This document shows positions 6,146 through 31,031 of a stretch of 31,033 nucleotides of DNA, piece after piece; the first letter of the stretch is position 1; the number at the start of each line of letters is the position of its first letter. The DNA comes from a virus (lineage: Duplodnaviria; Caudoviricetes). The translations under genes and the position numbers were made by a program. The notes under the pieces are model-generated. The model saw only the letters and a list, made by a program, of their open reading frames with translations, was not told the DNA's origin and did no database searches. The DNA lies in IMG/VR virus record IMGVR_UViG_3300031215_000047, positions 1 to 31,033 of that record; one strand, given 5' to 3'.

Positions 6146-6164
6146 GTTATGGGATTCCCATAAC
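6146..6164. promoter_or_regulatory. Perfect palindrome GTTATGGGA-T-TCCCATAAC (candidate operator or RNA hairpin), copy 1
   Basis: Intergenic, 9-bp arms; the same 17-bp core recurs at 9515-9531. Confidence 0.7.
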
Positions 6165-6177
6165 CAACCGGATTTAT

Positions 6178-7710
6178 ATGCAAATACTAAACGACAAAGC
6201 TATCTTGTTGGAGGTCGATAACCCCCAACAAGTGGTAAACTTAATCCCCAAGAGCCGGATAGTGGGCGATAAAGTCGCTGTCCACTGGGGCTTAGAAGAA
6301 ATAATGGTACTACGTAACCTAGGCTACGACGTACCTAGTCCAATCGAAGGCAGATACAAATTCCCCTCTGCCATGACTCCCTACGAACACCAAGTAAAGA
6401 CTGCGGCGTTTCTCTCTGTTAATCCACGTGCTTACTTGTTATCAGAACAAGGGACAGGCAAGACAGCCTCCGCTATATGGGCATCCGACTACTTACTAAA
6501 ACAAGGTAGGATAAATCGGGTACTCGTAGTGTGCCCTCTATCTATCATGGAGTCGGCGTGGAAAGATGATATGTTTAAGTTCGCCATGCACCGTACAGTA
6601 GAGGTAGCCCACGGCGCTAAAGAGAAACGCAGAAAAGTGCTAGCCTTAAACACGGACTACGTAGTAATCAACTACGACGGCATCGAAGTTATACGTGACG
6701 ACATAGCCGCCGGCGGTTTCGACTGCATAATAATCGATGAAGCTAACCACTATAAAAACCCGCAGACCGAACGGTGGAAAACTCTCAACAGCCTCGTGAA
6801 ACCAGATACATGGTTGTGGATGATGACAGGTACACCTGCGGCACAAAACCCCGTAGATGCGTATGGACTGGCTAAGATGATGGACCCTAGCTCTGTACCA
6901 AAATACTTCGGCAAGTTCCGAGATATGGTCATGCAGAAAATCACGCAGTTTAAATGGGTCCCTAAACACAACGCTAGGGATACAATACATAACGTGTTAC
7001 AACCCGCTATCCGGTTCACCAAAGACCAATGCTTAGACCTACCGCCGATTACGATTACGTCGCGGGACGTAGAAATGACCCCGCAGCAAAACAAATATTA
7101 TAAGGTGCTCAAAAACAAAATGGTTATGTCTGCAGCGGGGGAAGCGGTCACCGCGAGGAATGCCGCTATCCAGCTTGCTAAGCTGATGCAAATTAGCCTA
7201 GGTGCTGTGTACACCGATGAAGGAGAGGTGTTACAGTTTGACGTTACCCCCAGATACAAAGCACTAAAGGAAGTTATGGAAGAGGCAAACAAGAAAGTCA
7301 TTGTTTTCGTGCCGTTTAAAAACAGTATCAACTTGGTAGTGGAGAAGCTGAGAAAGGACAAAATATCGTGCGATATTATATCCGGAGAGGTAAGCGCGTC
7401 TAAGCGTTCAGAGATTTTTAGAGCTTTCCAAACCTCCGATACGCCTCAAGTTTTAGTCATCCAACCACAGGCGGCGGCACACGGTGTTACCCTAACTGCC
7501 GCAGACACAATAGTGTGGTGGGGGCCGACACCTAGTTTAGAAACGTACTTACAAGCAAACGCTAGGATTCATCGCCCGGGCCAAGATAGCAAATGCACCA
7601 TAGTTCAACTAAGAGGGTCTTACGTAGAAAGACGTTATTACGCAATGTTAGATACGAGAATAGACTTCCACACAGGTTTAGTAGACCTTTACAAAGAAAT
7701 ACTTGACTAG
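6178..7710 (+). CDS. SNF2-family (SF2) DNA helicase
   Basis: PYEHQ, EQGTGKT (Walker A), IIIDEAN (Walker B), MTGTP, HGVTLT, QANARIHRPGQ. Confidence 0.93.
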   Translation: MQILNDKAILLEVDNPQQVVNLIPKSRIVGDKVAVHWGLEEIMVLRNLGYDVPSPIEGRYKFPSAMTPYEHQVKTAAFLSVNPRAYLLSEQGTGKTASAIWASDYLLKQGRINRVLVVCPLSIMESAWKDDMFKFAMHRTVEVAHGAKEKRRKVLALNTDYVVINYDGIEVIRDDIAAGGFDCIIIDEANHYKNPQTERWKTLNSLVKPDTWLWMMTGTPAAQNPVDAYGLAKMMDPSSVPKYFGKFRDMVMQKITQFKWVPKHNARDTIHNVLQPAIRFTKDQCLDLPPITITSRDVEMTPQQNKYYKVLKNKMVMSAAGEAVTARNAAIQLAKLMQISLGAVYTDEGEVLQFDVTPRYKALKEVMEEANKKVIVFVPFKNSINLVVEKLRKDKISCDIISGEVSASKRSEIFRAFQTSDTPQVLVIQPQAAAHGVTLTAADTIVWWGPTPSLETYLQANARIHRPGQDSKCTIVQLRGSYVERRYYAMLDTRIDFHTGLVDLYKEILD

Positions 7711-7731
7711 CGTAAGTTTAGCCATTATATT
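7703..7731 (+). promoter_or_regulatory. Sigma70-type promoter TTGACT-N17-TATATT
   Basis: -35 at 7703-7708 (overlapping the end of the helicase gene), exact 17-bp spacer, -10 at 7726-7731, upstream of the GGAG SD and ATG 7758. Confidence 0.8.
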
Positions 7732-7757
7732 ACAAGTTCAACCAACCGGAGATTAAC

Positions 7758-8171
7758 ATGACTGACAGTACTGACAGTGGCTTACTGCCCGAAAAACTTA
7801 CCCGAGTATTCCTCAAGATACGCGACAGACGTAGCGAACTAAAAGCCGCGTTTTCTGAAGAAGACAAAAAACTAGAGGCCCAGCAAGATAAAGTTAAGGC
7901 CGCGCTTCTAGGTTTCTGCAAAACAAATGGCGTAGATAGCGTAAAAACAAACGCCGGCACGTTCTTCCGCACAGTTAAAACACGTTACTGGACTAACGAT
8001 TGGGAGGAGATGAATGCATTTATCAAAGACAATGATGCGCAACACTTCTACGAGAAACGCCTAAACCAAACTGCGGTTAAAGAGTTTATAGAGGAGGAGT
8101 TAGAGGGTAGCGCACCTGATTTTATTAACATAACTTCTGAATACCAAGTATCAGTAAGGAAAGGAAAATGA
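7758..8171 (+). CDS. Conserved phage hypothetical protein (N-terminal coiled coil)
   Basis: 137-aa ORF with GGAG SD; FLKIRD...SVKTNAGTFFR...RYWTNDW pattern recalled from similar phage replication modules. Confidence 0.8.
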   Translation: MTDSTDSGLLPEKLTRVFLKIRDRRSELKAAFSEEDKKLEAQQDKVKAALLGFCKTNGVDSVKTNAGTFFRTVKTRYWTNDWEEMNAFIKDNDAQHFYEKRLNQTAVKEFIEEELEGSAPDFINITSEYQVSVRKGK

Positions 8172-8575
8172 GTAACGGTCCATACGTTGGGATAGAAGCA
8201 CTAGCTAATTACTTCGGTGTTTCTACGTCAACGATACGCCAGTGGTTACGCGCCGATAAAATACCTGACAGCACCTACTTACGTGTCGGTTTAACATACC
8301 GATTCCATTTACGTGCTATAGAGGATGCGTTGCTTAACTACAAATCGCGTGAGGGGATGACCTCCGAAGAACGGGCTAAGTTTGCCGATGCTATCATACA
8401 AAGTTTGGATAGTAGTGTAGACGAAACCCAAGCGGGTATATCTGAGCGCAGACTGCGAGAAGCAAATGCGGAGCTAGATGCAAAATCGCGTGGTGTACCG
8501 TACCTGAAAGAAGACCAAAGTTTGGACGAGGAACTTTCCTCTATCCTAGAAGACGATGAACTAAAAGACATATAA
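8168..8575 (+). CDS. Excisionase-like (HTH_17) DNA-binding protein with acidic C-terminal extension
   Basis: IEALANYFGVSTSTIRQWLR...IP...RVGLTYRF. Confidence 0.8.
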   Translation: MSNGPYVGIEALANYFGVSTSTIRQWLRADKIPDSTYLRVGLTYRFHLRAIEDALLNYKSREGMTSEERAKFADAIIQSLDSSVDETQAGISERRLREANAELDAKSRGVPYLKEDQSLDEELSSILEDDELKDI

Positions 8576-9511: not shown

Positions 9512-9514
9512 GCG

Positions 9515-9531
9515 TTATGGGAATCCCATAA
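9515..9531. promoter_or_regulatory. Palindrome TTATGGGA-A-TCCCATAA, copy 2
   Basis: Intergenic, 8-bp arms identical to those of copy 1. Confidence 0.7.
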
Positions 9532-9549
9532 TGGGGTTCCTTTCTTTTT
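9520..9549 (+). terminator. Intrinsic terminator after the SSB-like gene
   Basis: GGAATCCCA-TAA-TGGGGTTCC stem (one G-U pair) followed by TTTCTTTTT. Confidence 0.65.
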
Positions 9550-9558
9550 CTTCAGGGG

Positions 9559-12414
9559 ATGGCAATGAACCGTGAAAATTTTATAAGGACGCTACTGCCG
9601 ACAAACGGGTTATACGCATTATTCGCAAAACATAAAAACGAAGAATGGCCTAGACAGACTTTCCACGACACTGTGGAGGGACTACTTAAAGCGCTAGACG
9701 CTTACGACGGGTATGACTTATATTGTGGGGTAGCTAGCTTTAAAGACGACAGCGATAGAAAGCAACATAATGTACACGAGATAAAAGCTTTCTTCTTAGA
9801 CTTGGATGCCAAAGACTTCGGCTCTAAGAAAGAGGCGTTGACGCAACTACAGGCTTTTTGTAAGGTAACTAAACTACCAAAACCTACTCTTATCGATTCG
9901 GGTAGGGGCATACACGTTTACTGGTTACTGGATAAAGCTATTGACGGTAGCACTTGGACTAAAGTAGCTACTAAACTAAAAGGTCTATGCGTACAGCATG
10001 GGCTTAAAGCTGACCCTGCGGTAACCAGTGACTCTGCAAGAGTAATGCGGATAGCAGGTACGTTTAACCATAAAGGCGAAGACCCCGTACCTTGCAGGGT
10101 GTTACAGTTTGACCCTGAGGCCGACAGAATTAGCCTAGAAGACTTCTCTGCTAAGATAGGTTACTCGTACGTACCTGAGCCAGAGTTTATAGTCCCTGCG
10201 GCGTTTGCGGGGCTAGAAGACCCACTATCTGACAAGTTAAGCGGCAATACTGAATCATCCTTTAAAGTCATAATGCAGAAAACACAGAAGGGCAAAGGGT
10301 GCGCTCAGCTAAGAAACGCGGTACTTGACAGTAAGGACCTAGATGAACCTACATGGCGAGGTGCACTATCTATAGCCGTAAGGTGTGTCGATAGTAGTGT
10401 AGCGCTACGCAAAGTATCTGAAAAGCATCCTGATTACTCAGAGAAGCTGACAAAGAAGAAGGCTGACGAAACTAAAGGCCCGTATACTTGCGACATGTTT
10501 GAAAACCTTAATCCTGATTTATGCAAAGGTTGCCCCAATAAAGGTAAAGTAAAATCCCCTATAGTACTTGGTAACCAGTTAATAGAACTAGAACAAACCG
10601 GTGACGGCGAAAGCCACCAAGAAACGGTCAAGTTAGTCAAGGACGGCGAAGTATTGCATGAGCTAACTGCTAATGTACCGCGCCCGCCTAGAGGTTACTC
10701 GTACGGAAAAGAGGGAGGTGTCTACGCTGTTGAGGTAGATGAAGACGGCAACAAAGACTTCAAAGTGGTATGCAAGCATACACTTTACGTAGTCGATAGA
10801 ACATACGACCCTATAGAACATCAGGAGTCGTTGATAGTCAGAGTACATATGCCGCAAGACGGTGTGCGGACCTTTATATTGTCTAACGCTCAAGTATCGT
10901 CTGCGGATAAGTTAAGAGAAGAACTCGCTAAGAAGGGTATACTATCTCTTAACCAGACAGAACTTAGGAGATACATCATGGCTTGGGTAGACCATTACCA
11001 ACAATATGCTATGGCTAAAAAACCTATACGCCAGTTTGGGTGGCAAGGTGTTGAGTGCACCCAATTCGTTTTGGGCGAAACTGTTTATACAAAAAACGGA
11101 CCAGAACTAGCACTGCCTTCGCCCAGAACGGCGCCTTACAATTCTTACTTCGACCCTAGAGGTACACTAGATAAGTGGGTAGCTAACTTAAAGTTTTGGG
11201 ACGACCCTAGATTCGTACAGCAACAATACTGTATGGGTGTCGGATTCGGCTCAGTACTAATGGAACGCGATGCTACTAACGCCTCTATACTGCATTTATA
11301 TAGTAAGGGTTCAGGGATAGGTAAGACGGCTATAGTAGAAGCGATAGCTAGTATATGGGGGCAACCTCGCCCACTTGTTATGAATCAAGACGACACGCTA
11401 GCATCTAAGATGAACCGCTCTGAGGTGTGGCACAACATACCGCTTATCCTAGACGAGATAACTAACATAACCCCGCAGGAAGCGTCACAAATCATATATC
11501 AGATGTCCAGTGGTCAGCAACGAAGCCGTATGAACAGCAACGCCAACGAGGAACGTGTTAGGGGGGACAGGTGGTCGTTCTTCTGTATCACCACTGCTAA
11601 TAACAGCATTCTAGATAAAGTTTGCGGTAGAGGAGGTAAAGCGTCGCCAGAGGCAGAAGCCCAGCGTGTTATCGAGATGCACGTAAACCGGCAGTACGCC
11701 GAGAACGACACAACCAACAAGAAGATTGCACTGAAATTTAGAAACGCCTTAGAGACTTCGTGCGGTGTAGCAGGTCCAGTTTTTATACAGTGGGTAATAA
11801 ACAATCCTACTGAGACCGACTTGATAATATCAAAAGTACAAGAGGCTGTTGATACCCGCGCCGAATTATCCGCTACAAATAGGTTTTGGTCGGCACAAGT
11901 AACATACGCTATCGCGGCTTTGGTCATATGCAAGAAACTAGGACTTTTAAGTTACGACCCTAAAAACGTTATGAAGTACGCTATTCAGATACTACTAAAA
12001 GAAAACAAGGCAAACGTAGTAGACATGAAGCAAGGATGTGTACAGGTGATAAGTAGTTACGTAGCAGAGAACTTTAGTAACTTCTTGCAGGTGAGAAACG
12101 ATAGTGACGCTTCAGATTCGGAGAACGGTACGCCGTTTATCCCACCAGACGAGAAAGCTAGAGTGAAGATACTGGGCAGATACGAGTCAGATAACTGCAG
12201 GTTGTTCTTGTTGTGCGGGCCATTTAAAGAGTGGTGCATAGATAGGCAGATTAACTACCGTGGTCTTCTCACTGACATACGTGAAGCGTACCCGTCAAGC
12301 GAGATAAAGACGTGCCGAATTGGTACTGGCACTAAACTAGACTTGGGTAGTAGCCGCACTTTAGTTATACCGTGGAGCCATAATGACGCAGATTCTCAAA
12401 GCCCTGCGTCATAA
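9559..12414 (+). CDS. Primase-helicase (AEP/RepB-like primase + Cys-rich domain + DUF927-type helicase)
   Basis: FFLDLD, SGRGIHVYW, RVMRIAGTFNHK; PYTC...CKGCP; FGWQ; Walker A GSGIGKT; Walker B LILDE. Confidence 0.88.
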   Translation: MAMNRENFIRTLLPTNGLYALFAKHKNEEWPRQTFHDTVEGLLKALDAYDGYDLYCGVASFKDDSDRKQHNVHEIKAFFLDLDAKDFGSKKEALTQLQAFCKVTKLPKPTLIDSGRGIHVYWLLDKAIDGSTWTKVATKLKGLCVQHGLKADPAVTSDSARVMRIAGTFNHKGEDPVPCRVLQFDPEADRISLEDFSAKIGYSYVPEPEFIVPAAFAGLEDPLSDKLSGNTESSFKVIMQKTQKGKGCAQLRNAVLDSKDLDEPTWRGALSIAVRCVDSSVALRKVSEKHPDYSEKLTKKKADETKGPYTCDMFENLNPDLCKGCPNKGKVKSPIVLGNQLIELEQTGDGESHQETVKLVKDGEVLHELTANVPRPPRGYSYGKEGGVYAVEVDEDGNKDFKVVCKHTLYVVDRTYDPIEHQESLIVRVHMPQDGVRTFILSNAQVSSADKLREELAKKGILSLNQTELRRYIMAWVDHYQQYAMAKKPIRQFGWQGVECTQFVLGETVYTKNGPELALPSPRTAPYNSYFDPRGTLDKWVANLKFWDDPRFVQQQYCMGVGFGSVLMERDATNASILHLYSKGSGIGKTAIVEAIASIWGQPRPLVMNQDDTLASKMNRSEVWHNIPLILDEITNITPQEASQIIYQMSSGQQRSRMNSNANEERVRGDRWSFFCITTANNSILDKVCGRGGKASPEAEAQRVIEMHVNRQYAENDTTNKKIALKFRNALETSCGVAGPVFIQWVINNPTETDLIISKVQEAVDTRAELSATNRFWSAQVTYAIAALVICKKLGLLSYDPKNVMKYAIQILLKENKANVVDMKQGCVQVISSYVAENFSNFLQVRNDSDASDSENGTPFIPPDEKARVKILGRYESDNCRLFLLCGPFKEWCIDRQINYRGLLTDIREAYPSSEIKTCRIGTGTKLDLGSSRTLVIPWSHNDADSQSPAS

Positions 12415-12619
12415 CCACTTTATAGAGGTTGACGGGGTAAAGTTTGCCATCCGATGGAGTGACTTTGGGAAAGGGACTTCCTTTTTTATACCCTGCATTA
12501 ATGCGTTTATGGTTACCAAGCAGGTAAAAAGCTACGTTAAGCAAGAGGGTTGGCAGGTTATTTATAGTATACGTGCAGAAGGCGGGTATTTTGGTGTTCG
12601 TTTTTGGAGAACAATGTGA
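12383..12619 (+). CDS. Small hypothetical protein
   Basis: 78 aa; GGAG SD inside the 3' end of the primase gene; last gene of the + strand arm. Confidence 0.7.
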   Translation: MTQILKALRHNHFIEVDGVKFAIRWSDFGKGTSFFIPCINAFMVTKQVKSYVKQEGWQVIYSIRAEGGYFGVRFWRTM

Positions 12620-12625
12620 TATATT
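12597..12625 (+). promoter_or_regulatory. Candidate extended -10 promoter (TG-A-TATATT) with weak -35 TTCGTT
   Basis: TG at 12617-12618, -10 at 12620-12625 (same hexamer as the 7726 promoter), 17-bp spacer; no downstream CDS before the terminator. Confidence 0.5.
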
Positions 12626-12631
12626 CCCAAT

Positions 12632-12698
12632 CGATGAACACACCTCCCTAGTAGACGTTTGTTTGTCTCCGGTTGGACCCCCGCAAGGGGGTCTTTTT
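12632..12698 (+). ncRNA. Candidate trans-acting small RNA (about 67 nt) with anti-Shine-Dalgarno seeds
   Basis: Lies between a candidate promoter and a strong terminator; 12660-12676 is complementary to 7742-7758 and 12640-12647 to 2337-2344. Confidence 0.5.
12676..12698 (+). terminator. Intrinsic terminator between the convergent arms
   Basis: GACCCCC-GCAA-GGGGGTC followed by TTTTT (GNRA tetraloop). Confidence 0.92.
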
Positions 12699-12699
12699 A

Positions 12700-15600
12700 C
12701 TACCGGTCTTCGAACATAACAGTCCCAAGAGTATCTTCGTTAAATTGCTTTAGATACTCCCGCATATTTTTAGAAAGGCTCACGCCGTTATACATCTCGT
12801 TTGAAGTCCTTATGTGCCCCTTCATAGAGGTTTTGATTCTATCTGGCGTTATAGCAAACTGCGGATTACGACGATTAAACTCCACCATCTCTTTAGCGGT
12901 TTCTCTAGCCGTTTTCAAATCGCCAATGCGGATAGCAACATAATACTTCTTAGTTAGACTAGTAGCCTTCTTGTTTATAGCTTCCTCGACTCGTTTGAAC
13001 CTACGTGTTTCTTCTTGCTTACGTAAGTACTCTTCTGGAGCGAACCCTATAACCTGAGATGCTATCTCTCCTGCTGACAAGTCATCGTGTACTAAGTCAT
13101 AACGACGCGTTCGTATACCACCTTCTCCAGAGTACCTGAACGGTTTAAGGATATTAGATAATGCGGCAGGTGCTAGTTGCTCGAACCCACGTCGGTAGTT
13201 ACCTTCTTGCAGGTCGTCTACACCTCTATCTATGCGATTGTATATGCTTAGACCAACCCCACCGAAGACACCTGCTATTGTTTCCTCGTTCGTAGGATTC
13301 GGGTTAAACTTGTTCCCCTGCAATATTAAGTCAGTGAGGCGCATACGCACACCGGCATCTATGTCTACCCCGAAGCTTTCTAGCGCGGCGTTAACCCCCC
13401 CACGGAACCAACCTTGACTTATATGACTTTGTACAATCGTATCGAAGTCGTCCTCGTCCTCGTCACCAAACATCGCGTCGTAAATAAGCGCGACGGAGCC
13501 ATATATCGGCAACCCATACACTCCCGAGAAGAACAGTGCCGTACCGTGTATACCAACAATCTGCCTAAGGGCTTCTTTGCGTTTTGTAGGGTCGTTTTTA
13601 TATAGCTCTTTTACTGCATTCCTAGCTGTCTGGAACATCATGGTATACATGTGGATGCCGTAGTTCTTATACATCAACGCTACGCGCCCGATACCTTGCT
13701 GAGATAACCCAGATGCGGCTTCTAGTGTAGCACCGCCGTTTATGCGTTGGGTGTATTCGATTGCAAATTGCGCGGCTTCTGTCCTAGCACGGTTTATTGC
13801 ATCGGCATCGCTCATGTCCGCACGATACTCTTTGTATAACTTGTTATACTCCAAGTTGTAAGACGCTATCAATGTAGCTTGGCGTCCGAACCTTTCCGCT
13901 TGGCTAAACATGCCGGCACTTAAAGCAACAAAGGTATTAATAAACCCCGTCTCTACTTCCTTGCCGCCCTCCGTTATGCCTAGAGCTTCGTTTAAGAAAG
14001 AGCTAGTTAACTGCCCTTGCTTTTTAGCCTCTAGTACCATCTGTTCGATACCTTTAAGTTGGTCCATTCTACTTTTAGGTAGTTTCAAATCTTTGCGAAG
14101 CTTTATTTTTGTCTCACCAGAAGCCTCGAAGGTAATGTCGAAGTATTCTTCTATGCCGTGGGCTATTGACCCCCTAGCTAGAGCCTTACCAGTGGCAGTG
14201 TCCTCCCTAGCTACGCCACGCGCACCAAACACGATACTGCTAGCCTCGCGTATAGCTTTACTTGCTTCAGGGTATGAGTACTTGCCCCCCAACATAGGGA
14301 AAGCAACCATGGGCACTTGTGACAAGTTAACCAGTGCAGAAGCCATGTTAAAGCCGATAGTAAACACAAACGCAGTTTGGTTGATATTCTTAAATACCGC
14401 TTCCATGCCTTTGTTGTCGGCACCGTTTATAACGAAGTTAACCCGTTTATCCAGTTCTTGTTTAACCTGCATCTGGTACTTGGCTTTTGCTGGTTCGACC
14501 TTGTTGTTTACAATCTCAGTCTCTACCGTCTCCGCTAGTTCAGTTTTTAAATCCGTTAGTTCTTTAACTGCGTCTAGCCTAACCGTCTGCGTACCGTTTT
14601 GGTAACCTTTCTTGGCTAGCGCGTACCCCACGTCTTTAGAATACCCTACAGTATTATCTCTACTGCGGAACGAGTTAAGGATTGACGATTCTGGCAATGT
14701 ATTTGTGTAGACATCGATAACGTCCGCTATAACGGTATCAGGTACGCCGCTATCTTTTAGCTCATTCAGCAAATCGTACATAAACGCCGTCGGCGGCACA
14801 TCACTTATTTTGTTGGACTCGTTAGAACGTCTGCGCTCTCTAACAGTGTCAGGAACATATGCGCTATCTTTTTTCAGCACCTCTATAAACTGCTTAGCCT
14901 CGGCACGACTGTCAAACTGCCTAACCACATTAGTCGGTAAACCGCCGAAGTCACGTATCTCGTACGCCACAACAAAGTCTCCTTCCCTAACTAGCGGGAA
15001 GTACACTTCTAGCCTACCTCTTTCTATTAGCTTCTTATTAAGTCTGTCCCTAGAGGCTTTGTTACCTGCGGCACCGGCTTTCTCCATTGTCTCTTCGATT
15101 CGACGGTTTAAGCTTTTCTCAACGTCTTTGCGCTGGTTGTCGTAGAACTCTCGCATCTCTCGATATATATTCTTAGTGCTAGGCTCCATTTTATCGAACA
15201 CTTCTTTGAGCATTTTATAACTTTCGCGCTGCTCGTCCGTTTTATAATCAGATATGTCTTTCTTGTCTACGTCAACCTGCGAGATAGTGGCACCGAAATC
15301 TTCGTCATATATAAACGTGTTAAGGTACGTACGTTGTGTTTCAGATAGTGCATTATACTTCTTAAGTAACGGACCAAGAATACCGTTAACCTTTTTCTCC
15401 ATTAACTCTTGTGCGCCACGGTAGCGGTTAAAGGCTTTTAGCATGCGATGACCTATGTCACCTAGGCCGGCCCACTGCGCCATATCCGCGACTCCCTGCA
15501 TCTGTAACACTCTATTAAACACGTTAGATACCGCTTCAGGTACAGAAGTCACTAGGTCTGAGGCTTTGTTTACCCACTTCTTACGCTCGGCCACCGTGTT

Positions 15601-18600
15601 GAAAGTTTTGGTCTGGTTGTCCATGTTTCTGCCGACCGTTGAAGCTACCCCGTCTGGCGTAGACTCCATTAGTAGCTCACCTGCTGGGCGTGTAGTAGGC
15701 GCTGGGTGTATAGCAGACATAATGAGGTTGTCCATCTCTGTCATTACTGACTGCGGACCCTTTACATCTATCCCTAGCTTAGTACGCATGAAATTAGCAA
15801 CGGTGTTTAAGAACCTACCCCATGCGCTCATAGCAGTTCCGTCAGGACGGATACGAGATAGCATCTTCTGGAAGTCTGGATTGCTAAACGCTTCGGCTAC
15901 AAACTCGTCTAGGTTTTTAGCACCGTAAGCAGAACCTAATTGGTCTTTTGATTCGGCAAATAGTTTCTCTAGTTGCTTGGTAGTTGGGTTGCTCTTGTTA
16001 GCGAGTGTCTGACTTGTTACAGCGTGTAGCACTTCGTGCAGAATCGTATGTGCGTTCATACCGTCAACGGCATCTAGGTACACTGTGTTGTTAGTAGGGT
16101 CGAAATACCCCGCTACGTCAGTACCGTCGGACGATGTTAGGTTACGCATTACAACTACTTTAGTGTCGCCTACGTTGTTTATTAGCGCGGTGACTATTCT
16201 GGTTAGCTTAGGGTCTACGATAGTTTGTTTTAGCCTAGTTAGCGCTTCGCCTAGTCTAGCGTTGTATAGTGAGGCACGTACACCAAAAGGAACTGCTTTA
16301 GCGCTTTCTAGTAAGGCGTCAACTGGTAAGTTCTTAGAGCGCATGTCCTTACGTAGGTTTTTAATACTTACGCCCAACGCTTTTATCTGGTCTTCTAGTG
16401 GTTTAACTGTTTTGGCCAAGTAGTCGCGTTTAGCTTCTCCTTTCATGCTAGAAGCTTTATCCATAGCGTTGTCATACTTGGCTTCTATTTGCTCTTTTTT
16501 GTTCTCTAACCCTGCTATCTCCACGATTATGGTGTCGTTAGTGACCGGCACATTACGCTTGCTTAACTCCGCGTCTTTTTTAAGGCGTGGGTCCGCAAGG
16601 TATTTTTCCACTGCCTTCTGTAAGGCAGACATGGACGGGGTTTTCTTTACAGCGGCGTAGGCTTCTTGCGCTCGCGTGAAACCAGTCCCAGCGAGTTTTT
16701 TATCGGTAGTGTTTTTTTGTTCGTTGTCATCTACCTCGAAAAATCTTTTGCCTTTATCTTTAGCGGTTCTTGGAGCCCCTTTTCTAGGTTGGCGCTCTGG
16801 GCTTTCCGACATTAAATCGAACGCGATGCTTCTTGCCGCCATATCGACATCACCATCAGAGGCATCCATATACTTATCAAACGAAGCTTTTTCTTTTGCC
16901 GAGGCAGTAGAGTCCTGCGTAGTTACCTTATTAGCCGCGGCTTTTACATCACTTTCTGTCCTAACCGGTGCTTCCGCCGCAGGTTCGTTCTTCTTGCCCG
17001 TACGATTAACGCTTACACCCCGTGAAGCGTTCCGCTCTTTTTTAGTCTGCGACTCCGTTTTCTTAGGGGTAGGAGCTTTCGCCGCCGGCTTAGTAGTCTT
17101 AACAGGTTCGGATTTCTTAGCAACCGGTGCAGGTTTAGGTGCTTCTTTCTTAGCAACCGGTGCAGGTTTAGGTGCTTCTTTCTTAGCAACCGGTGCAGGT
17201 TTAGGTGCTTCTTTCTTAGCAACCGGTGCAGGTTCGGCTTTCTTAGCAACCGGTGCAGGCTTAGCTGGTACTACTTTCCCCGCGAAAATATTTCTTACTC
17301 GTTTACTAACGCGTCTTTGTGACTTCCCTGCTTGAACCACGCGGTCTAAGTAGGCTTTTTGTTTCTGGGAGGTAGTGGCATCGGGCATTGCCGTTACTAC
17401 AGCTTCAGCAACGCGGTCTTCGAAGCCGGTCTTTTCCACTAAGGTCATATCCGCCCATGGTTTAGGTTCCACTACACTATCTATCATTTTTCGAGCACGA
17501 GCGTTCGCGGCTCTCTGCCCAGTAACTTGGCCCTGCCCAGAAGGTGCCTTGCTAGGTGTTTCTGGTGCCTCTATATCAGCGGCTTGTATCGCTTGTTGTT
17601 CTGCTTGGGCGTCGGCATCTTCTTTCTGAAGCGCCTCTACTATGCCTGAAGCACGTTTTAGTTTCTCGAACTCAGGTTCCGTTAAGGTAGTGTCTTGCAA
17701 CCCTCCGGCTTTCATACTGTCTACAACCGCCCGTCGTAGCCTATTAACGTTAGTTTCTTCGGGTATGGAGGCCAATGTGTCTTCTATAATTTTATCGCGT
17801 CTTTGTTGTGACTTGTTACGTTGAGAAGTCTCTAATAATTCATTAGTAACAGGTACAGTCGCTTCAAACTCTTGTGCCGCTTGTTGTTCTTGTTGCGCTC
17901 GTTGTTTTTGTTCCGCGGCATCGTTTTGTTCTTGCTCTAGCAAACCTGCAAATTCGGCTTCCTCAACTACGTCCAACTGGCGCGTACGTGCATCTTCAGC
18001 AAACAACTCATCTACTTGTTCTTGCTCGGTGGGCTGTGCCATCTGCTCTTGGCGTTGCCGCTCTTGCTCTTTACGTTGTAAGTTCTGAGCTAGATTTTGA
18101 CCGCGCTCGGCGGCGAACATGTCTTGTTGTTCCCCGGGCACCAGCGATTCGTTACGCAACTGCGTTTGTCTATCTAGTTCAAGTTGTTGTTCTGGACTAA
18201 TACGTTGTGGCGCTTGTTGTGGCGCAGTAGGTTCGTTTCTACGGTTCTCGATGCGCTGTTCCGCTTGAGCTAAACCAGCAATGCCAGTTTTGGGGATTTG
18301 AGGTTGTTGGGCACGTAGGCGTTCTAACCTAGATAAGCGTGGGTCTAAGTCCGCTTCTTCCCCAACATCGGGGGTATCGTCGCCCTCTTCAGCTTTAGCC
18401 ATCATAGCGCCGACACTATCTTCATCCCACTCGTCAGGTATTTGCGATCCTATTTCTTGCTTTTGTTCGGGAGTTAACGGTGTCTGCTGCTGGGTTTGTG
18501 CAGGCGCAGTAGGGCTTGGTGATGTTGGTGAAGTACCCTCATTCTGCGGGGTTTCAGTGCGTTTTGGAGTGTTGGCTGACCTTCTTCCCCCTAACAAGTC

Positions 18601-19428
18601 AAGGGCACCTTGGAATATAGCACCTGAGATACCTCCGATAGTGCCTTCTTCCGCGACGGCGGCATCGAACAATACACGCTCCGCGTTATACCCCTGTTCA
18701 ATAAGGTTCTGTCCTACAGCAGCGACGACTTCTTGTGCGCCCTCTGCTAGTGCTGTTTGCCCCATACGCCCGGGAGCTGTTTCTGCCAACCTTTGGAGTC
18801 GGGTCTGCGCTTGTTCGATAACTTCATCGGGCACTTTACCGCGGATACGGTTAATAGACTTAAATATTTTAGCTAGTGGCGCGGCTTCTAACGCACCTAA
18901 AGGCAGTGCTTTAATAATAGAAGTGTTTCGTTCTTCTTCCGTTGAGCCAAAGTCACGGGCGCGTTCACTCGCTTCCCCCGCTGCGGCGGCGATACCTAGC
19001 CCTGCGGCTACCGGCAATGCGGCTTTTCCTGCGAACGCGGCGGGTATAAAAGCACCTATAGAGCCTAAGCCCCCACCAATCTTCTGCGACCAGCTATCAG
19101 GGTCACCACGTTGTTCCACCCCAAAGAAATCTTGGATACCTTCACGGTTACGCAGTTCTTGTTCTTCGTCGAACAAAGCATTAGCACCTAGAGCGCCTGT
19201 CTCTAAAGTGCCCATAAAACCTTGCTTTAGTCCTTGCCCTAGATTACCTATCATCCCGACTTCTTCGGTATTTGCTAAGGTGGAGTTTATAATACTCAAG
19301 GCATCGCTACCCATCATACCGCTCTCTATTAAGCTTACCTCTGCAACTCTAGCTATAGACTCTACCGCCTCGGTGTTCCCTGCTGATTTAGCTCGTTTTA
19401 GGGCTTCTAGATATTGTTCTGGGCTCAT
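12700..19428 (-). CDS. Giant internal virion/DNA-ejection protein with zincin-like metallopeptidase motif (polyvalent-type)
   Basis: 2242 aa; last gene of the late operon; Gly/Ala hydrophobic N-terminus; AGYFDP...VYL...ILHEVLHAVT...LDEFVAEAFSNPDFQ. Confidence 0.8.
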   Translation of the reverse strand: MSPEQYLEALKRAKSAGNTEAVESIARVAEVSLIESGMMGSDALSIINSTLANTEEVGMIGNLGQGLKQGFMGTLETGALGANALFDEEQELRNREGIQDFFGVEQRGDPDSWSQKIGGGLGSIGAFIPAAFAGKAALPVAAGLGIAAAAGEASERARDFGSTEEERNTSIIKALPLGALEAAPLAKIFKSINRIRGKVPDEVIEQAQTRLQRLAETAPGRMGQTALAEGAQEVVAAVGQNLIEQGYNAERVLFDAAVAEEGTIGGISGAIFQGALDLLGGRRSANTPKRTETPQNEGTSPTSPSPTAPAQTQQQTPLTPEQKQEIGSQIPDEWDEDSVGAMMAKAEEGDDTPDVGEEADLDPRLSRLERLRAQQPQIPKTGIAGLAQAEQRIENRRNEPTAPQQAPQRISPEQQLELDRQTQLRNESLVPGEQQDMFAAERGQNLAQNLQRKEQERQRQEQMAQPTEQEQVDELFAEDARTRQLDVVEEAEFAGLLEQEQNDAAEQKQRAQQEQQAAQEFEATVPVTNELLETSQRNKSQQRRDKIIEDTLASIPEETNVNRLRRAVVDSMKAGGLQDTTLTEPEFEKLKRASGIVEALQKEDADAQAEQQAIQAADIEAPETPSKAPSGQGQVTGQRAANARARKMIDSVVEPKPWADMTLVEKTGFEDRVAEAVVTAMPDATTSQKQKAYLDRVVQAGKSQRRVSKRVRNIFAGKVVPAKPAPVAKKAEPAPVAKKEAPKPAPVAKKEAPKPAPVAKKEAPKPAPVAKKSEPVKTTKPAAKAPTPKKTESQTKKERNASRGVSVNRTGKKNEPAAEAPVRTESDVKAAANKVTTQDSTASAKEKASFDKYMDASDGDVDMAARSIAFDLMSESPERQPRKGAPRTAKDKGKRFFEVDDNEQKNTTDKKLAGTGFTRAQEAYAAVKKTPSMSALQKAVEKYLADPRLKKDAELSKRNVPVTNDTIIVEIAGLENKKEQIEAKYDNAMDKASSMKGEAKRDYLAKTVKPLEDQIKALGVSIKNLRKDMRSKNLPVDALLESAKAVPFGVRASLYNARLGEALTRLKQTIVDPKLTRIVTALINNVGDTKVVVMRNLTSSDGTDVAGYFDPTNNTVYLDAVDGMNAHTILHEVLHAVTSQTLANKSNPTTKQLEKLFAESKDQLGSAYGAKNLDEFVAEAFSNPDFQKMLSRIRPDGTAMSAWGRFLNTVANFMRTKLGIDVKGPQSVMTEMDNLIMSAIHPAPTTRPAGELLMESTPDGVASTVGRNMDNQTKTFNTVAERKKWVNKASDLVTSVPEAVSNVFNRVLQMQGVADMAQWAGLGDIGHRMLKAFNRYRGAQELMEKKVNGILGPLLKKYNALSETQRTYLNTFIYDEDFGATISQVDVDKKDISDYKTDEQRESYKMLKEVFDKMEPSTKNIYREMREFYDNQRKDVEKSLNRRIEETMEKAGAAGNKASRDRLNKKLIERGRLEVYFPLVREGDFVVAYEIRDFGGLPTNVVRQFDSRAEAKQFIEVLKKDSAYVPDTVRERRRSNESNKISDVPPTAFMYDLLNELKDSGVPDTVIADVIDVYTNTLPESSILNSFRSRDNTVGYSKDVGYALAKKGYQNGTQTVRLDAVKELTDLKTELAETVETEIVNNKVEPAKAKYQMQVKQELDKRVNFVINGADNKGMEAVFKNINQTAFVFTIGFNMASALVNLSQVPMVAFPMLGGKYSYPEASKAIREASSIVFGARGVAREDTATGKALARGSIAHGIEEYFDITFEASGETKIKLRKDLKLPKSRMDQLKGIEQMVLEAKKQGQLTSSFLNEALGITEGGKEVETGFINTFVALSAGMFSQAERFGRQATLIASYNLEYNKLYKEYRADMSDADAINRARTEAAQFAIEYTQRINGGATLEAASGLSQQGIGRVALMYKNYGIHMYTMMFQTARNAVKELYKNDPTKRKEALRQIVGIHGTALFFSGVYGLPIYGSVALIYDAMFGDEDEDDFDTIVQSHISQGWFRGGVNAALESFGVDIDAGVRMRLTDLILQGNKFNPNPTNEETIAGVFGGVGLSIYNRIDRGVDDLQEGNYRRGFEQLAPAALSNILKPFRYSGEGGIRTRRYDLVHDDLSAGEIASQVIGFAPEEYLRKQEETRRFKRVEEAINKKATSLTKKYYVAIRIGDLKTARETAKEMVEFNRRNPQFAITPDRIKTSMKGHIRTSNEMYNGVSLSKNMREYLKQFNEDTLGTVMFEDR
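17113..17259 (-). repeat. In-frame tandem repeat: 3 x 33 bp plus two partial units (PAPVAKKEAPK)
   Basis: Core TTTCTTAGCAACCGGTGCAGG at 17113, 17146, 17179, 17212 and 17239. Confidence 0.92.
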
Positions 19429-22893: not shown

Positions 22894-25308
22894 TTACCCT
22901 CTAAGTAATCTTATTAAATCTTCTACATTATTATGACTAACTATACCACCTTGGTTATAATTTAGTCGCTTTAATTTTTCATCTTCTAGCGCCCCCGATA
23001 ACGTTAGAGCATCTAAGTCAAACAGTTCCCCTAGCTCTACTAGTGCCGTTTCCTCAGGGGTGTACATGCCGGGGTTTGCAATGCCAGTAGACGTTGGTCC
23101 ACCTAATAACCCTAGCAACCTCGAGAGGTCAACATCTGGCAGGTCAACATCTGGCAGGTCAACATCTGGCAGGTCAACATCTAGCGAGCCAACATCTGGT
23201 AAGTCTGGTAAATCTGGTAAGTCTGGTAAGTTTACGTCAGGTAAGTCAACATCTGGTATAGCCTCACGGATGTCTCTTCCTATCTCGCGTACTGTATCCG
23301 CTGTAGCGTCAATAGCCGGCTGTATAAACTCACGATTTACCGTGCTAGCACCTTCTTCTGCGGCGTCTAACACAGGGCGGATAACTTCGCGGTTTACATC
23401 ACTAGCTAGCTCTTCAGTAGTATCTAACACAGGGCGGATAACTTCACGGTTTACATCACTAGCTAGCTCTTCAGTAGTATCTAACACAGGGCGGATAACT
23501 TCGCGGTTTACTGTGCTAGCCCCTTCCTCTACTGTGTCTAGAATGGGTTGGGTAACATTATCATCAAACTCTCGCCCAGCTTCACGTAACCCATCTTCGA
23601 TAAACCCTAAGTCAGGGTCTGGTAGGTCAGGCACCATACCTTCTAAAAACTCTTTAACCGGTTGCAATACAGAGTCGTCAAAATCCCTACCTAACTCACG
23701 TAACCCATCCTCTATCCACCCTAGGTCTGCACCGTCGCCTACATCTAAGTCAGGCAGGTTAGGTATTAATTCCCCAAGAAATTCTTTTATATCTTCTGCA
23801 TCGCCGCCTTGGTCTACGTACTCTTTAACCCCGTTAAACAAAGCATCTGAGGCAACGCCGTTTTCACCGTATTCGGCAACGGCTTCCACTACCCCTAACC
23901 CAAAAGCTTGCCCGTTCTGAGTGCCAGAAAATAGTTGGTCTGCTACGGTAGCACCATACCTTTCAGCTAAAGAATCCCCAAGATTGCGTCCCGCGGCTTG
24001 GTCTAATAAGGTAGCAGTGAACGCTCCATCTGCAGTTAGAGCATTGGCAACGTCGCTGTTGAATATCTCCGTGAGCCCCTGATTTAAAGTGTCGTCGATG
24101 TCGATGAACTCCGCAATATCATCGCCGAACAGACTTATTGCCGCCTGTATGGGGTCACCACCTTGGTCTACAATGTTTGCGAACTGGGCGACATTATCCA
24201 CGTTACTTGCTATGTTTACTGCGCTCTGCAAGGAGCTTATCTGATTCGTTAATTCGGCCACCTGTGCAGTGTTCCCCGCAGTCTGTGCGGCATCTAACGC
24301 AGTCTGTGCGCTGCTTAACTCACTAGCCAACCCACTAGCGTATCCCGACAAACCACTCAGCGTTGCTGCACGGAGTATATCCCCCACACCGCCACCTTGA
24401 AGTCCCGTGACTGTGCCACTTACAACGGCATTGGATACGCCCGTTGCACCCGCTGTCCCAAACCCTGTTATAGTGCCCGCCAGTGGAGTAAGCGCTGCGG
24501 CGAGAGGTAGCATAACCGCCGCCATCCCGATGATTTGACCGGGTTTAGGTTTTAGGCTTACTTTAGAATATTTTAACGTCTCAGGGTCTAACGCCCACAC
24601 TTCCGTGTCGCTTATAGGAATCCTCTGCGGTATGTTATACCGCTGTATTACGTCGCTCCCTAGTTCGTAACTTTCGTTTGCCCAGAAATCGTCATACCCT
24701 TGCTCTTGGTTTGCCGCCGCCGCTTGTATGTCTTGCAGTTCTTGTCTAGCCGCGATGTCGTCGCCATGGTATCTTCTTATTTCATCGTTAAGTTCAGGAG
24801 CTACGTCTGCACTTATGTTACTAGCGTTAGCAAATAAGTTGCCCAAGTCGGATGTATCTATCTGTGGGGCGTTGGTAGTACTAATCCTATCCTTCAGAAG
24901 GTCTATCTCTGAAATTTCCTGTACAGGCGGTTGCGTCGGTGGTGTAGTTACAATAGGCTGAGTACGGGAACCATCATCTGGACGTTTCTCGGTGGGTGCA
25001 GTAGGCATGGGGTCTACTATGTTACCTGATGCGGGAGGTGTTGGGCTCTGTACCGGCGGCGACGTCACAATAGGTTGCGTACGGGACCCATCATCCGGAC
25101 GTTTCTCGACAGGTGCAGGTATAAGCGCAGGTGTTTGTTGGGCAGCCGCAATACCCTCTGGCATCGGCGCAATGGCATTTAAAGGGTTAAGTGTTTGTTG
25201 GGCAGCCGCAATACCCTCTGGCATCGGCGCTATGGCACTTGAAGGATTAGGTGGCATATAACTGCCCTCTATACCGAATAAATCCTGTAGTTCTAAATCA
25301 GTAAACAT
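22894..25308 (-). CDS. Acidic, repeat-rich putative virion/ejection protein
   Basis: 804 aa; Pro-rich N-terminus, central hydrophobic Gly/Ala segment, 19-aa and DVDLP repeats. Confidence 0.7.
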   Translation of the reverse strand: MFTDLELQDLFGIEGSYMPPNPSSAIAPMPEGIAAAQQTLNPLNAIAPMPEGIAAAQQTPALIPAPVEKRPDDGSRTQPIVTSPPVQSPTPPASGNIVDPMPTAPTEKRPDDGSRTQPIVTTPPTQPPVQEISEIDLLKDRISTTNAPQIDTSDLGNLFANASNISADVAPELNDEIRRYHGDDIAARQELQDIQAAAANQEQGYDDFWANESYELGSDVIQRYNIPQRIPISDTEVWALDPETLKYSKVSLKPKPGQIIGMAAVMLPLAAALTPLAGTITGFGTAGATGVSNAVVSGTVTGLQGGGVGDILRAATLSGLSGYASGLASELSSAQTALDAAQTAGNTAQVAELTNQISSLQSAVNIASNVDNVAQFANIVDQGGDPIQAAISLFGDDIAEFIDIDDTLNQGLTEIFNSDVANALTADGAFTATLLDQAAGRNLGDSLAERYGATVADQLFSGTQNGQAFGLGVVEAVAEYGENGVASDALFNGVKEYVDQGGDAEDIKEFLGELIPNLPDLDVGDGADLGWIEDGLRELGRDFDDSVLQPVKEFLEGMVPDLPDPDLGFIEDGLREAGREFDDNVTQPILDTVEEGASTVNREVIRPVLDTTEELASDVNREVIRPVLDTTEELASDVNREVIRPVLDAAEEGASTVNREFIQPAIDATADTVREIGRDIREAIPDVDLPDVNLPDLPDLPDLPDVGSLDVDLPDVDLPDVDLPDVDLSRLLGLLGGPTSTGIANPGMYTPEETALVELGELFDLDALTLSGALEDEKLKRLNYNQGGIVSHNNVEDLIRLLRG
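23126..23182 (-). repeat. About 4 x 15-bp in-frame repeat (DVDLP)
   Basis: AGGTCAACATCTGGC units read directly. Confidence 0.85.
23330..23520 (-). repeat. About 3 x 57-bp in-frame repeat (VNREVIRPVLDTTEELASD)
   Basis: TCTAACACAGGGCGGATAACTTC at 23366, 23423 and 23480. Confidence 0.88.
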
Positions 25309-29850: not shown

Positions 29851-31031
29851 TATCGTAGCCCTGCGCCAAACACGTGTATCGCGCTAGAACTTGCTACCAC
29901 AACAGTACACACCCCGCCCGGCTCTAAGACCCTATTACCTTGTTCTCTGGCTTCCCCCGAATACCAAAACAACGTATCTGAAGTCCCTGCGTTTAGGTTC
30001 ATATCTCCCGACGAAGAGTTGACTATAGTAAAAGCACTGCCTACTTGTATTGAGGTACCCACTGTAAACGTAACCACACTATTAGTGACTTTCTGGTAGT
30101 AGATATTGTTCGCGCCACCCGCTGTAACATTGGTAAGTATGACTGGCGCTATATTCAGTAACTCCTCACCCTCCAAATCTGCAACCCTAGTCGTGAGAGA
30201 AGGTATTGCAGTGTTCTCTAGAGCGGTGACATCACCTTGCAGGTTACTGATGTCGGTATCGTTACTCGTTATTCTATTGCCTAAGGTCGTAGCACCGCTT
30301 TGCAGGGCGCTGATATCGCCATCATTGCTCGTTACCCGGCCCGAAAGCGCTGGTATTGTAGTGTTCTCTAGAGCGGTGACATCACCTTGTAAGTTACTGA
30401 TGTCGGTATCGTTACTGGTTACTCGCCCAGACACTGTCGCAACATCACTAGCGTTAGCAGTTGTCGCGTTCTCAGTGGCAATCATACGGTTTGTTAGCGT
30501 GTTAACATTAGAGGTATTCGTAGACGTAGCGCTTTCAGTGTTAGTAACCCGCGTAGTAAGTCCCGATATAGCTGTGGAGTTACTAGCAATGTCACCGGCG
30601 TTGTCTGAAATATCTCCTTCTGCTGCAGTAACACGGTTCGATAGCGCAGTGACGTCGCCGTTGACCCCGCTGTTTTCTAGACTAGTGACGCGAGTGTTAA
30701 GTCCGCTTACTCCCGTCGTGTTAGATGCCGTAGCGCTTTCGGTGTTAGTAACCCGCGTCGCTAACGCGCTTATGTCCGTATCGTTACTGGTTATTCTACC
30801 GCTCAGAGTGCTGATGTCGCCATCATTGCTTGTGACTCGCCCTTGTAGTGTAGATATGTCACCATCATTACTGGTTATTCTACCACTTAAATTGCTGATG
30901 TCCGTGTCGTTACTAGTTACTCGACCATCAAGCGTGTTTATACCTCCTTCATTGACATCTGCCTTGGCATCCACCTCGTCTATCGCACCTTGTACGTCAG
31001 TAGCAGTCAGCCCACTTGTAGCGTTATCGTA
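29850..31031 (-). CDS. Tail fibre protein, 5'-truncated at window edge
   Basis: Frame stays open past the track's 30974 start (YDNATSGLTATDVQGAIDE); 14-aa RVTSNDxDISxL coiled-coil repeats; beta-rich C-terminus. Confidence 0.85.
   Translation of the reverse strand, partial: YDNATSGLTATDVQGAIDEVDAKADVNEGGINTLDGRVTSNDTDISNLSGRITSNDGDISTLQGRVTSNDGDISTLSGRITSNDTDISALATRVTNTESATASNTTGVSGLNTRVTSLENSGVNGDVTALSNRVTAAEGDISDNAGDIASNSTAISGLTTRVTNTESATSTNTSNVNTLTNRMIATENATTANASDVATVSGRVTSNDTDISNLQGDVTALENTTIPALSGRVTSNDGDISALQSGATTLGNRITSNDTDISNLQGDVTALENTAIPSLTTRVADLEGEELLNIAPVILTNVTAGGANNIYYQKVTNSVVTFTVGTSIQVGSAFTIVNSSSGDMNLNAGTSDTLFWYSGEAREQGNRVLEPGGVCTVVVASSSAIHVFGAGLR

Follow-up and report, generated by a model that had tools for sequence, protein, structure and literature searches.

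The 80-bp noncoding gap between the two convergent gene arms of an uncultured phage likely encodes a trans-acting small RNA (sRNA) of about 66 nt, which would block the translation of early and replication genes of the same phage by pairing with the extended Shine-Dalgarno (SD) box that they share. The probability of this reading is put at roughly 0.7. The window, that is the whole stretch of 31,033 nucleotides analysed, is part of a phage genome in which a plus-strand replication arm converges on a minus-strand structural arm. As far as sequence can tell, the element in the gap combines a conserved -10 box, a covarying 5' stem and complementarity to leaders with covariation of these leaders and a restriction to the early arm. 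An earlier note on this DNA had proposed a promoter-seed-terminator sRNA directed at the SD sequences of early and replication genes. Comparison with relatives supports the core of this proposal well; the targets at 2073 and 2346 and the second seed that it included are weak.

Genomic context and architecture of the predicted RNA

The replication arm carries, on the plus strand, genes encoding a polymerase, an exonuclease, an SNF2 helicase, a 137-aa protein, an HTH protein, a 308-aa protein, a primase-like protein and a 78-aa protein, the last of which gave no match in PHROG and Pfam searches. The gap lies between ORF 12383-12619 (+) and ORF 12700-19428 (-), so that its neighbours are the primase, 78-aa and 2242-aa genes (Table 1). 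Both the extended -10 promoter and the GCAA terminator previously described in this 80-bp gap were found again at the same positions. The extended -10 includes TGATATATT (12617-12625), and the -35 region of this promoter is poor. Judged by sequence only, the gap has a predicted promoter and the intrinsic terminator by which trans-acting sRNAs are recognized. It also lacks a conserved ORF, being 80 bp long and holding an element whose length ranges from 54 to 88 nt across the family. An Rfam covariance-model search of the window gave no match at E<=1.

Table 1. Predicted elements, genes and target sites in the window
Feature	Position	Strand	Remarks
Predicted extended -10 promoter, TGTG-A-TATATT	12615-12625	+	Its TG belongs to the TGA stop of the 78-aa gene
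Predicted small RNA, ~66 nt	12632-12698	+	Start at 12632-12633 deduced from the -10 spacing
Predicted 5' stem-loop P1, C-rich loop	12633-12667	+	12633-12640 pairs with 12660-12667; fold and strand-swap test
Predicted single-stranded seed UCCGGUU (family consensus GUUCUCC)	12668-12674	+	Full complement is 12660-12676
Intrinsic terminator	12675-12698	+	8-bp stem 12675-12694, GCAA loop, U tail on + strand only
78-aa gene, last of the replication arm	12383-12619	+	Conserved; stop overlaps the predicted promoter
2242-aa gene, convergent, end of the structural arm	12700-19428	-	DarB-like match
Sigma70-like promoter before the 137-aa gene	7703-7731	+	10/12 matches; similar site in 24/61 relatives
SNF2 helicase gene	6178-7710	+	
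137-aa gene	7758-8171	+	
Gene for HTH protein	8168-8575		
Principal predicted target, from the SD of the 137-aa gene to its start codon	7742-7758	+	Cofold gain -15.6 kcal/mol
Second predicted target, SNF2 helicase leader	6164-6172	+	9/9 pairs; cofold gain -13.2 kcal/mol
SD of the gene at 2346, possible though weak target of ACACCUCC in the loop	2337-2344	+	Cofold gain -10.1 kcal/mol

The window also contains tandem coding repeats at 17104-17294, 23111-23262, 30202-30938 and 1449-1503, located in the 2242-aa, 804-aa, tail-needle-like and 136-aa genes, respectively.

Complementarity to leaders of the window

As the earlier note had described, the segment 12660-12676 can pair with 7742-7758 through 15 Watson-Crick pairs and 1 G-U pair, with 1 mismatch and 11 contiguous pairs. 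The 11-nt perfect complement of the RNA occurs on the plus strand only in the leader of the 137-aa gene. Since a second 11-nt match exists at 4406, in the same sense, an 11-mer match taken alone is near chance. The placement of the complement in a leader is not: among the 30 called leaders, the best helix, formed with that of the 137-aa gene (-29.1 kcal/mol), was reached by none of 300 shuffles of the RNA body. The 9-bp pairing of the same seed with the helicase leader was likewise recovered at all nine positions, and 2 of 1000 shuffles reached it. These helices were evaluated with an ungapped score, because duplex folding of the whole gap was uninformative, giving long loose helices.

The two other pairings that had been proposed exist as matches and carry little weight. 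That of the second seed with the SD of the gene at 2346 (ACACCTCC/GGAGGTGT, 2337-2344) is reached by 26 of 1000 shuffles for that one leader, and as a family feature this seed is weak, a C-rich first loop being found in 26 of 54 representatives. The imperfect pairing with the ribosome-binding site (RBS) of a supposed HTH gene (2062-2073) shows a cofold gain of -7.8 kcal/mol and is also reached by 26 of 1000 shuffles. The HTH label of the gene at 2073 was dropped as unsupported because its product has no Pfam match. Among 30 leaders, both matches are weak. The leader of the 308-aa gene shows a cofold gain of -1.3 kcal/mol in the window.

A 19-bp palindrome (GTTATGGGAWTYCCATAAC-like) directly precedes the starts of the helicase (6146-6164) and primase (9514-9532) genes, its first copy abutting the predicted helicase target site. 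It is kept in the relatives L002 and L003 and is present in only 3 of 54 representatives. This palindrome is a candidate operator for the HTH protein encoded at 8168-8575 or a candidate RNA hairpin bound by a repressor.

Conservation of the element in relatives

Loci of relatives were gathered through the 308-aa protein, hence independently of the gap. They number 163 including the window, and 85 of them reach the end of the 78-aa gene. Two loci that have no gap (L196 and L264) and one without a U-run in range were dropped, leaving 82 copies that represent 67 distinct sequences. Gene order is conserved among these relatives, which form a syntenic family of uncultured phages. L196 and L264 belong to this family and have no element at the convergence of their arms, so they could serve as natural controls for its loss.

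The six bases that follow the stop codon of the 78-aa gene read TA...T in 54 of the 67 distinct copies and start with TA in 65, whereas TA...T follows only 2 of 458 stops of eight other genes. The stop itself is TGA in 64 of 67 copies, which is weak evidence alone because polymerase and primase genes often end in TGA as well. TCTCC, corresponding to the UCUCC seed, is present in 59 copies and absent from 8. In 49 of 54 representatives, the first paired base lies 6-8 nt downstream from the -10 box. The UCC core is predicted to be unpaired between the 5' stem and the terminator, with a mean probability of 0.90-0.95 over these 54 representatives, whose median folding z is -1.67. The folds include 69 G-U pairs out of 522 on the plus strand versus 32 out of 491 on the minus strand; the plus strand is the more stable in 33 of 54 cases and the minus strand in 19. 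A minus-strand U tail was found in a single representative. Within P1, pairing between the two strands of one copy is better than with strands swapped in from other copies, at each of three dereplication levels (n=51, 30 and 19; p=5e-5 each).

A covariance model of the element (R1) found one strong match in the window and one in each of the 10 longer genomes examined, most of which are in or near its training set. Since the MAFFT alignment left P1 unaligned, R1 contains only 7 terminator pairs and misses the divergent copies L181, L201, L205, L207, L209 and L321. Four distant cultured phages, Rollin, RHph_TM3_14A, KPP25 and Xp15, show plain hairpins in the gaps examined, with no model match below E=0.1 (in Rollin, whose arms overlap, another gap was considered), so that no cultured member of the family was found. 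Scanning viral contigs for a 14-nt seed pattern returned almost only noise, 1 of 120 loci having the flanking genes of the element. A promoter-plus-seed pattern gave 28 loci, including 5 family members. The 13 matches found in species genomes all lie on contigs of 2-55 kb, none on a long chromosome, and the MAG labels are mixed.

Covariation of the seed and the leaders

Each RNA was scored against the leader of its own phage and against the leaders of all other phages, using the ungapped helix score. At 80% dereplication, the own leader is strongly preferred for the helicase gene (z=-7.6, n=31), the 137-aa gene (z=-5.9, n=37), the 308-aa gene (z=-6.1, n=40) and the primase gene (z=-4.7, n=41). 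Five control genes (pol, exo, g5868, hth and g12383, the latter being the 78-aa gene) stay within 1.2 at this level; at other levels, the exonuclease gene gives p=0.009 (95%) and the 78-aa gene p=0.035 (70%). The reverse complement of the RNA, used as a control, gives no signal (z from -0.2 to 1.5), so base composition does not explain the covariation. The excess of own over other pairing extends on both sides of the GGAG core.

A second set, derived from helicase, pattern and genome searches, comprises 38 loci that reach the gap. The terminator parser accepted 29 of them and failed on 9; 13 of the sequences are new. In this set, the preference was found again for the 137-aa gene (z=-4.3, n=10, p=1e-4) and the helicase gene (z=-2.1, n=9, p=0.02); it was not replicated for the 308-aa and primase genes. 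Seed-target covariation, which the earlier note had suggested looking for in related genomes, is therefore seen for the helicase and 137-aa genes, in both sets.

Switches between clades illustrate this covariation. The window, L002 and L003 combine ACCGGA leaders with a UCCGGU seed, and L003 additionally pairs its GAG with CTC of the helicase leader. Likewise, AACTGGAG leaders go with CTCCAGTT in L205, L207 and L209, and ATGGAAG leaders with CTTCCAT in L412 and L419, while L321 displays a perfect 13-nt match between RNA and leader. A swap between sister pairs, which controls for ancestry, brings modest support: among 32 pairs, the own combination is better in 17, worse in 12 and tied in 3 (p=0.016; control genes, p=0.91). 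Comparing G-U with A-C combinations gave no RNA signature, either for the four target genes, where the counts of 34/41 vs 22/11 point the wrong way (p=0.06), or for the early arms (p=0.85); A-rich leaders confound this comparison.

In the sister clade of L205 (8319-8402), L207 (8741-8809) and L209 (6569-6651), the complement of the leaders has apparently moved into the terminator loop.

Restriction of the predicted pairing to the early arm

Ten longer genomes were fetched and, together with the window, make up 11 genomes in which genes and starts were called by a purpose-written script. At least 10 contiguous pairs with the RNA of the same genome are possible for 43 of 241 early-arm leaders, compared with 1 of 270 late leaders; with a threshold of at least 9, the counts are 54 and 5. 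GGAG is present in 154 early and 112 late leaders. As long pairing is rare among the latter, late genes do possess an SD but mostly lack its extension. The threshold of 9 pairs is reached in the window by 2 of 17 early and none of 11 late leaders, and by 10-11 leaders in each of the genomes G003, G004 and G005. Own-minus-other pairing in the early arms is positive in 9 of the 11 genomes (p=0.054). The predicted regulon of the clade of the window has two clear targets, and that of some relatives would include about ten.

An early-arm ATPase gene lies beside a 400-aa gene in L291 (15420-18195), L295 (5024-7354) and L300 (5718-8095), the L291 copy carrying DUF2201 metallopeptidase and VWA domains. 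The leaders of these two genes are among the best matched in G003 and G004.

Alternative explanations

The extended box might be the site of a protein, such as a RegB-like nuclease, a translational repressor or a factor binding a DNA operator, and the gap would then hold a further copy of this site, acting in a minus-strand late read-through RNA or in DNA. The family box GGAGAAC resembles the consensus GGAGRAYARAA of T4 RegB, as given in the available part of PMC3014915. If up to 2 mismatches are allowed, 58 of 241 early versus 18 of 270 late leaders contain this consensus, and 2 early ones contain it exactly. Besides, the late arm of 53 of 54 representatives has no minus-strand U tail, and the G-U test gave no RNA signature. 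However, a protein site leaves unexplained the plus-strand -10 box, the covarying P1 beginning at the predicted +1 and the unpaired seed. In one clade, the copy has apparently shifted into the terminator loop. The covariation also includes bases located 5' of GGAG, whereas RegB needs the sequence 3' of it according to the available portions of PMC1702504 and PMC3014915. Furthermore, no RegB family was detected among the 89 proteins scanned in PHROGs and the 56 scanned in Pfam, which are a subset of the genes. A protein site is thus considered unlikely. It is quite unlikely that a real RNA pairs with the leaders for another end, be it lineage-specific superinfection immunity, a carrier-state control like that by c4, or the protection of mRNAs. 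The seed flanks do vary by lineage in step with the leaders, a 4-nt change is enough to set the specificity of c4 (available part of PMC5320573), and a host-type promoter could allow the RNA to be made without phage proteins. However, no integrase was found among the proteins scanned, and the species-genome matches mentioned above all lie on short contigs. In addition, RNA pairing over an SD usually represses translation.

An RNA acting mainly as a general anti-SD against host mRNAs, and matching phage leaders merely through their common SD, is very unlikely. Its UCUCC core would indeed pair with any GGAGA SD, and GGAG is frequent in late leaders too, but the own-versus-other covariation and the clade switches require pairing specific to the phage. 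The last explanation, which seems extremely unlikely, invokes an ordinary 3' untranslated region (UTR) and terminator, or the SD of a small minus-strand gene, whose complementarity to the leaders would be due to chance. Although the 11-nt match alone is near chance and the terminator also ends the primase operon, the seed and the -10 box are conserved family-wide, and the gaps examined in the four distant cultured phages contain only plain hairpins. The minus-strand gene was rejected, a start codon following the minus-strand GGAG in only 13 of 57 cases, with no common frame or length. Conservation, covariation and the early-versus-late counts already largely refute the ordinary 3' UTR.

A proposed model for the action of the predicted RNA

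Returning to an sRNA that blocks early translation, the following model can be drawn. The host sigma70 polymerase would start at about 12632-12633 and stop at the terminator, at about 12698. The seven exposed bases UCCGGUU of the RNA would dock on AACCGGA in the leader of the 137-aa gene. This pairing would then open P1 and lengthen until 16 of 17 positions are paired across the SD and the start codon; on the helicase leader, it would take in 9 positions and cover the SD region. Loading of the 30S subunit would be blocked, perhaps with decay of the mRNA. The most likely purpose would be that early and replication proteins are damped as the RNA accumulates, the late genes remaining translatable; this is the simplest purpose because late leaders mostly escape pairing.

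A broader proposal is that an extended SD box peculiar to this non-integrating family marks the entire early arm, which one complementary RNA silences, the seed and the box being re-coded together from one lineage to another. It is tentative and given a little less than even odds. Where early-gene shut-off is known in lytic phages, it depends on proteins, of which RegB is an example. A single RNA fitting an RBS code that spans the arm and is specific to the lineage would time the phage programme differently, and the family would provide a natural panel of matched sRNA-RBS pairs.

At the point where the arms converge, a U-tailed terminator of the structural arm is missing from the window (12675-12700) and from 53 of 54 representatives. 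Therefore, late transcription may run antisense through the small RNA and the replication arm, and such read-through could neutralise the predicted RNA late in infection.

Comparison with known systems

The systems below are taken as described in the available portions of the cited sources. Like the predicted RNA, the c4 antisense RNA of P1 and P7 is a phage RNA of less than 80 nt in which short exposed segments pair with phage RBSs and whose specificity drifts between phages (PMC5320573, PMC8201110). In contrast, c4 consists of three stem-loops, is released by RNase P cleavage of a precursor and acts on the ant/icd immunity region (PMC5320573, PMC8201110), whereas the gap element forms two hairpins, is predicted to have a promoter and a terminator of its own, and has predicted targets throughout the early arm. 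Membership in the c4 family was rejected, given the absence of an Rfam match, the two hairpins instead of three and neighbours other than the ant/icd region.

T4 RegB offers another parallel, as an extended GGAG SD box close to the family box marks early mRNAs and late ones are spared (PMC1702504, PMC3014915). RegB is nevertheless a protein that cuts, together with S1 (PMC1702504, PMC3014915), whereas a complementary RNA is predicted here to mask. In its logic, the predicted sRNA would likely be the RNA counterpart of RegB. According to the available part of PMC3014915, T4 had yielded no characterised trans-acting regulatory RNA as of 2010.

SviR, from the Vibrio cholerae satellite PLE, is also a base-pairing sRNA that has multiple targets near RBSs, including in its own genes, independently of Hfq and ProQ (bioRxiv 10.1101/2022.04.08.487710). 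It is however the product of a satellite, with targets in two genomes, and the available part of this source describes no shared extended-SD regulon; homology with SviR was compared through Rfam alone. Other phage-encoded base-pairing regulatory RNAs, namely PreS, VpdS, DicF, sar, OOP and 24B_1, come from temperate phages and differ in that they target host genes or a single phage gene, or act in cis (PMC12197685). Neither this RNA nor an anti-SD phage sRNA acting on a whole arm was found described in the literature surveyed, mostly open-access and taken without the supplements of PMC5737381 and PMC12197685, in which more motifs and sRNAs are catalogued.

Cuckoo/CcsR sRNAs have repeated hairpins with CCUCCUCCC loops. 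Membership in this group was rejected as well: the gap seed is single and lies in a linker, the C-rich first loop is restricted to 26 of 54 representatives and there is no Rfam match.

The start-associated sequence (SAS) of cluster K mycobacteriophages differs from the family box in sequence and belongs to another phage group. Like this box, it is an extended SD repeated only in the non-structural arm, and four K1 phages have a single inverted copy away from gene starts, whose function was left as 'RNA or protein' in the available part of PMC3203893. The inverted SAS of Anaya (L315:31871-31883) and Angelica (L318:30635-30647) lies in a predicted hairpin loop, within a structured noncoding stretch near the right end; 16-17 forward copies were counted in the parts of these genomes that were fetched. 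For Pixie and TM4, the right parts that were fetched contain no inverted copy. The region of the inverted SAS is a candidate antisense RNA to the forward copies. If the broader proposal is true, it would likewise account for orphan RBS boxes that are repeated and accompanied by a single inverted copy, such as SAS, and the predicted RNA would suggest a testable answer to the question that SAS leaves open in the culturable K1 mycobacteriophages.

A repeated leader box is also carried by Rhizobium phage RHph_TM3_14A. This box, of GGTAAC type, is found at leaders L333:1657, 5177, 11200, 31835 and 34804, thus in both arms, and in the convergence gap (L333:23110-23135). It is a near-palindrome in places and looks more like a DNA or protein site.
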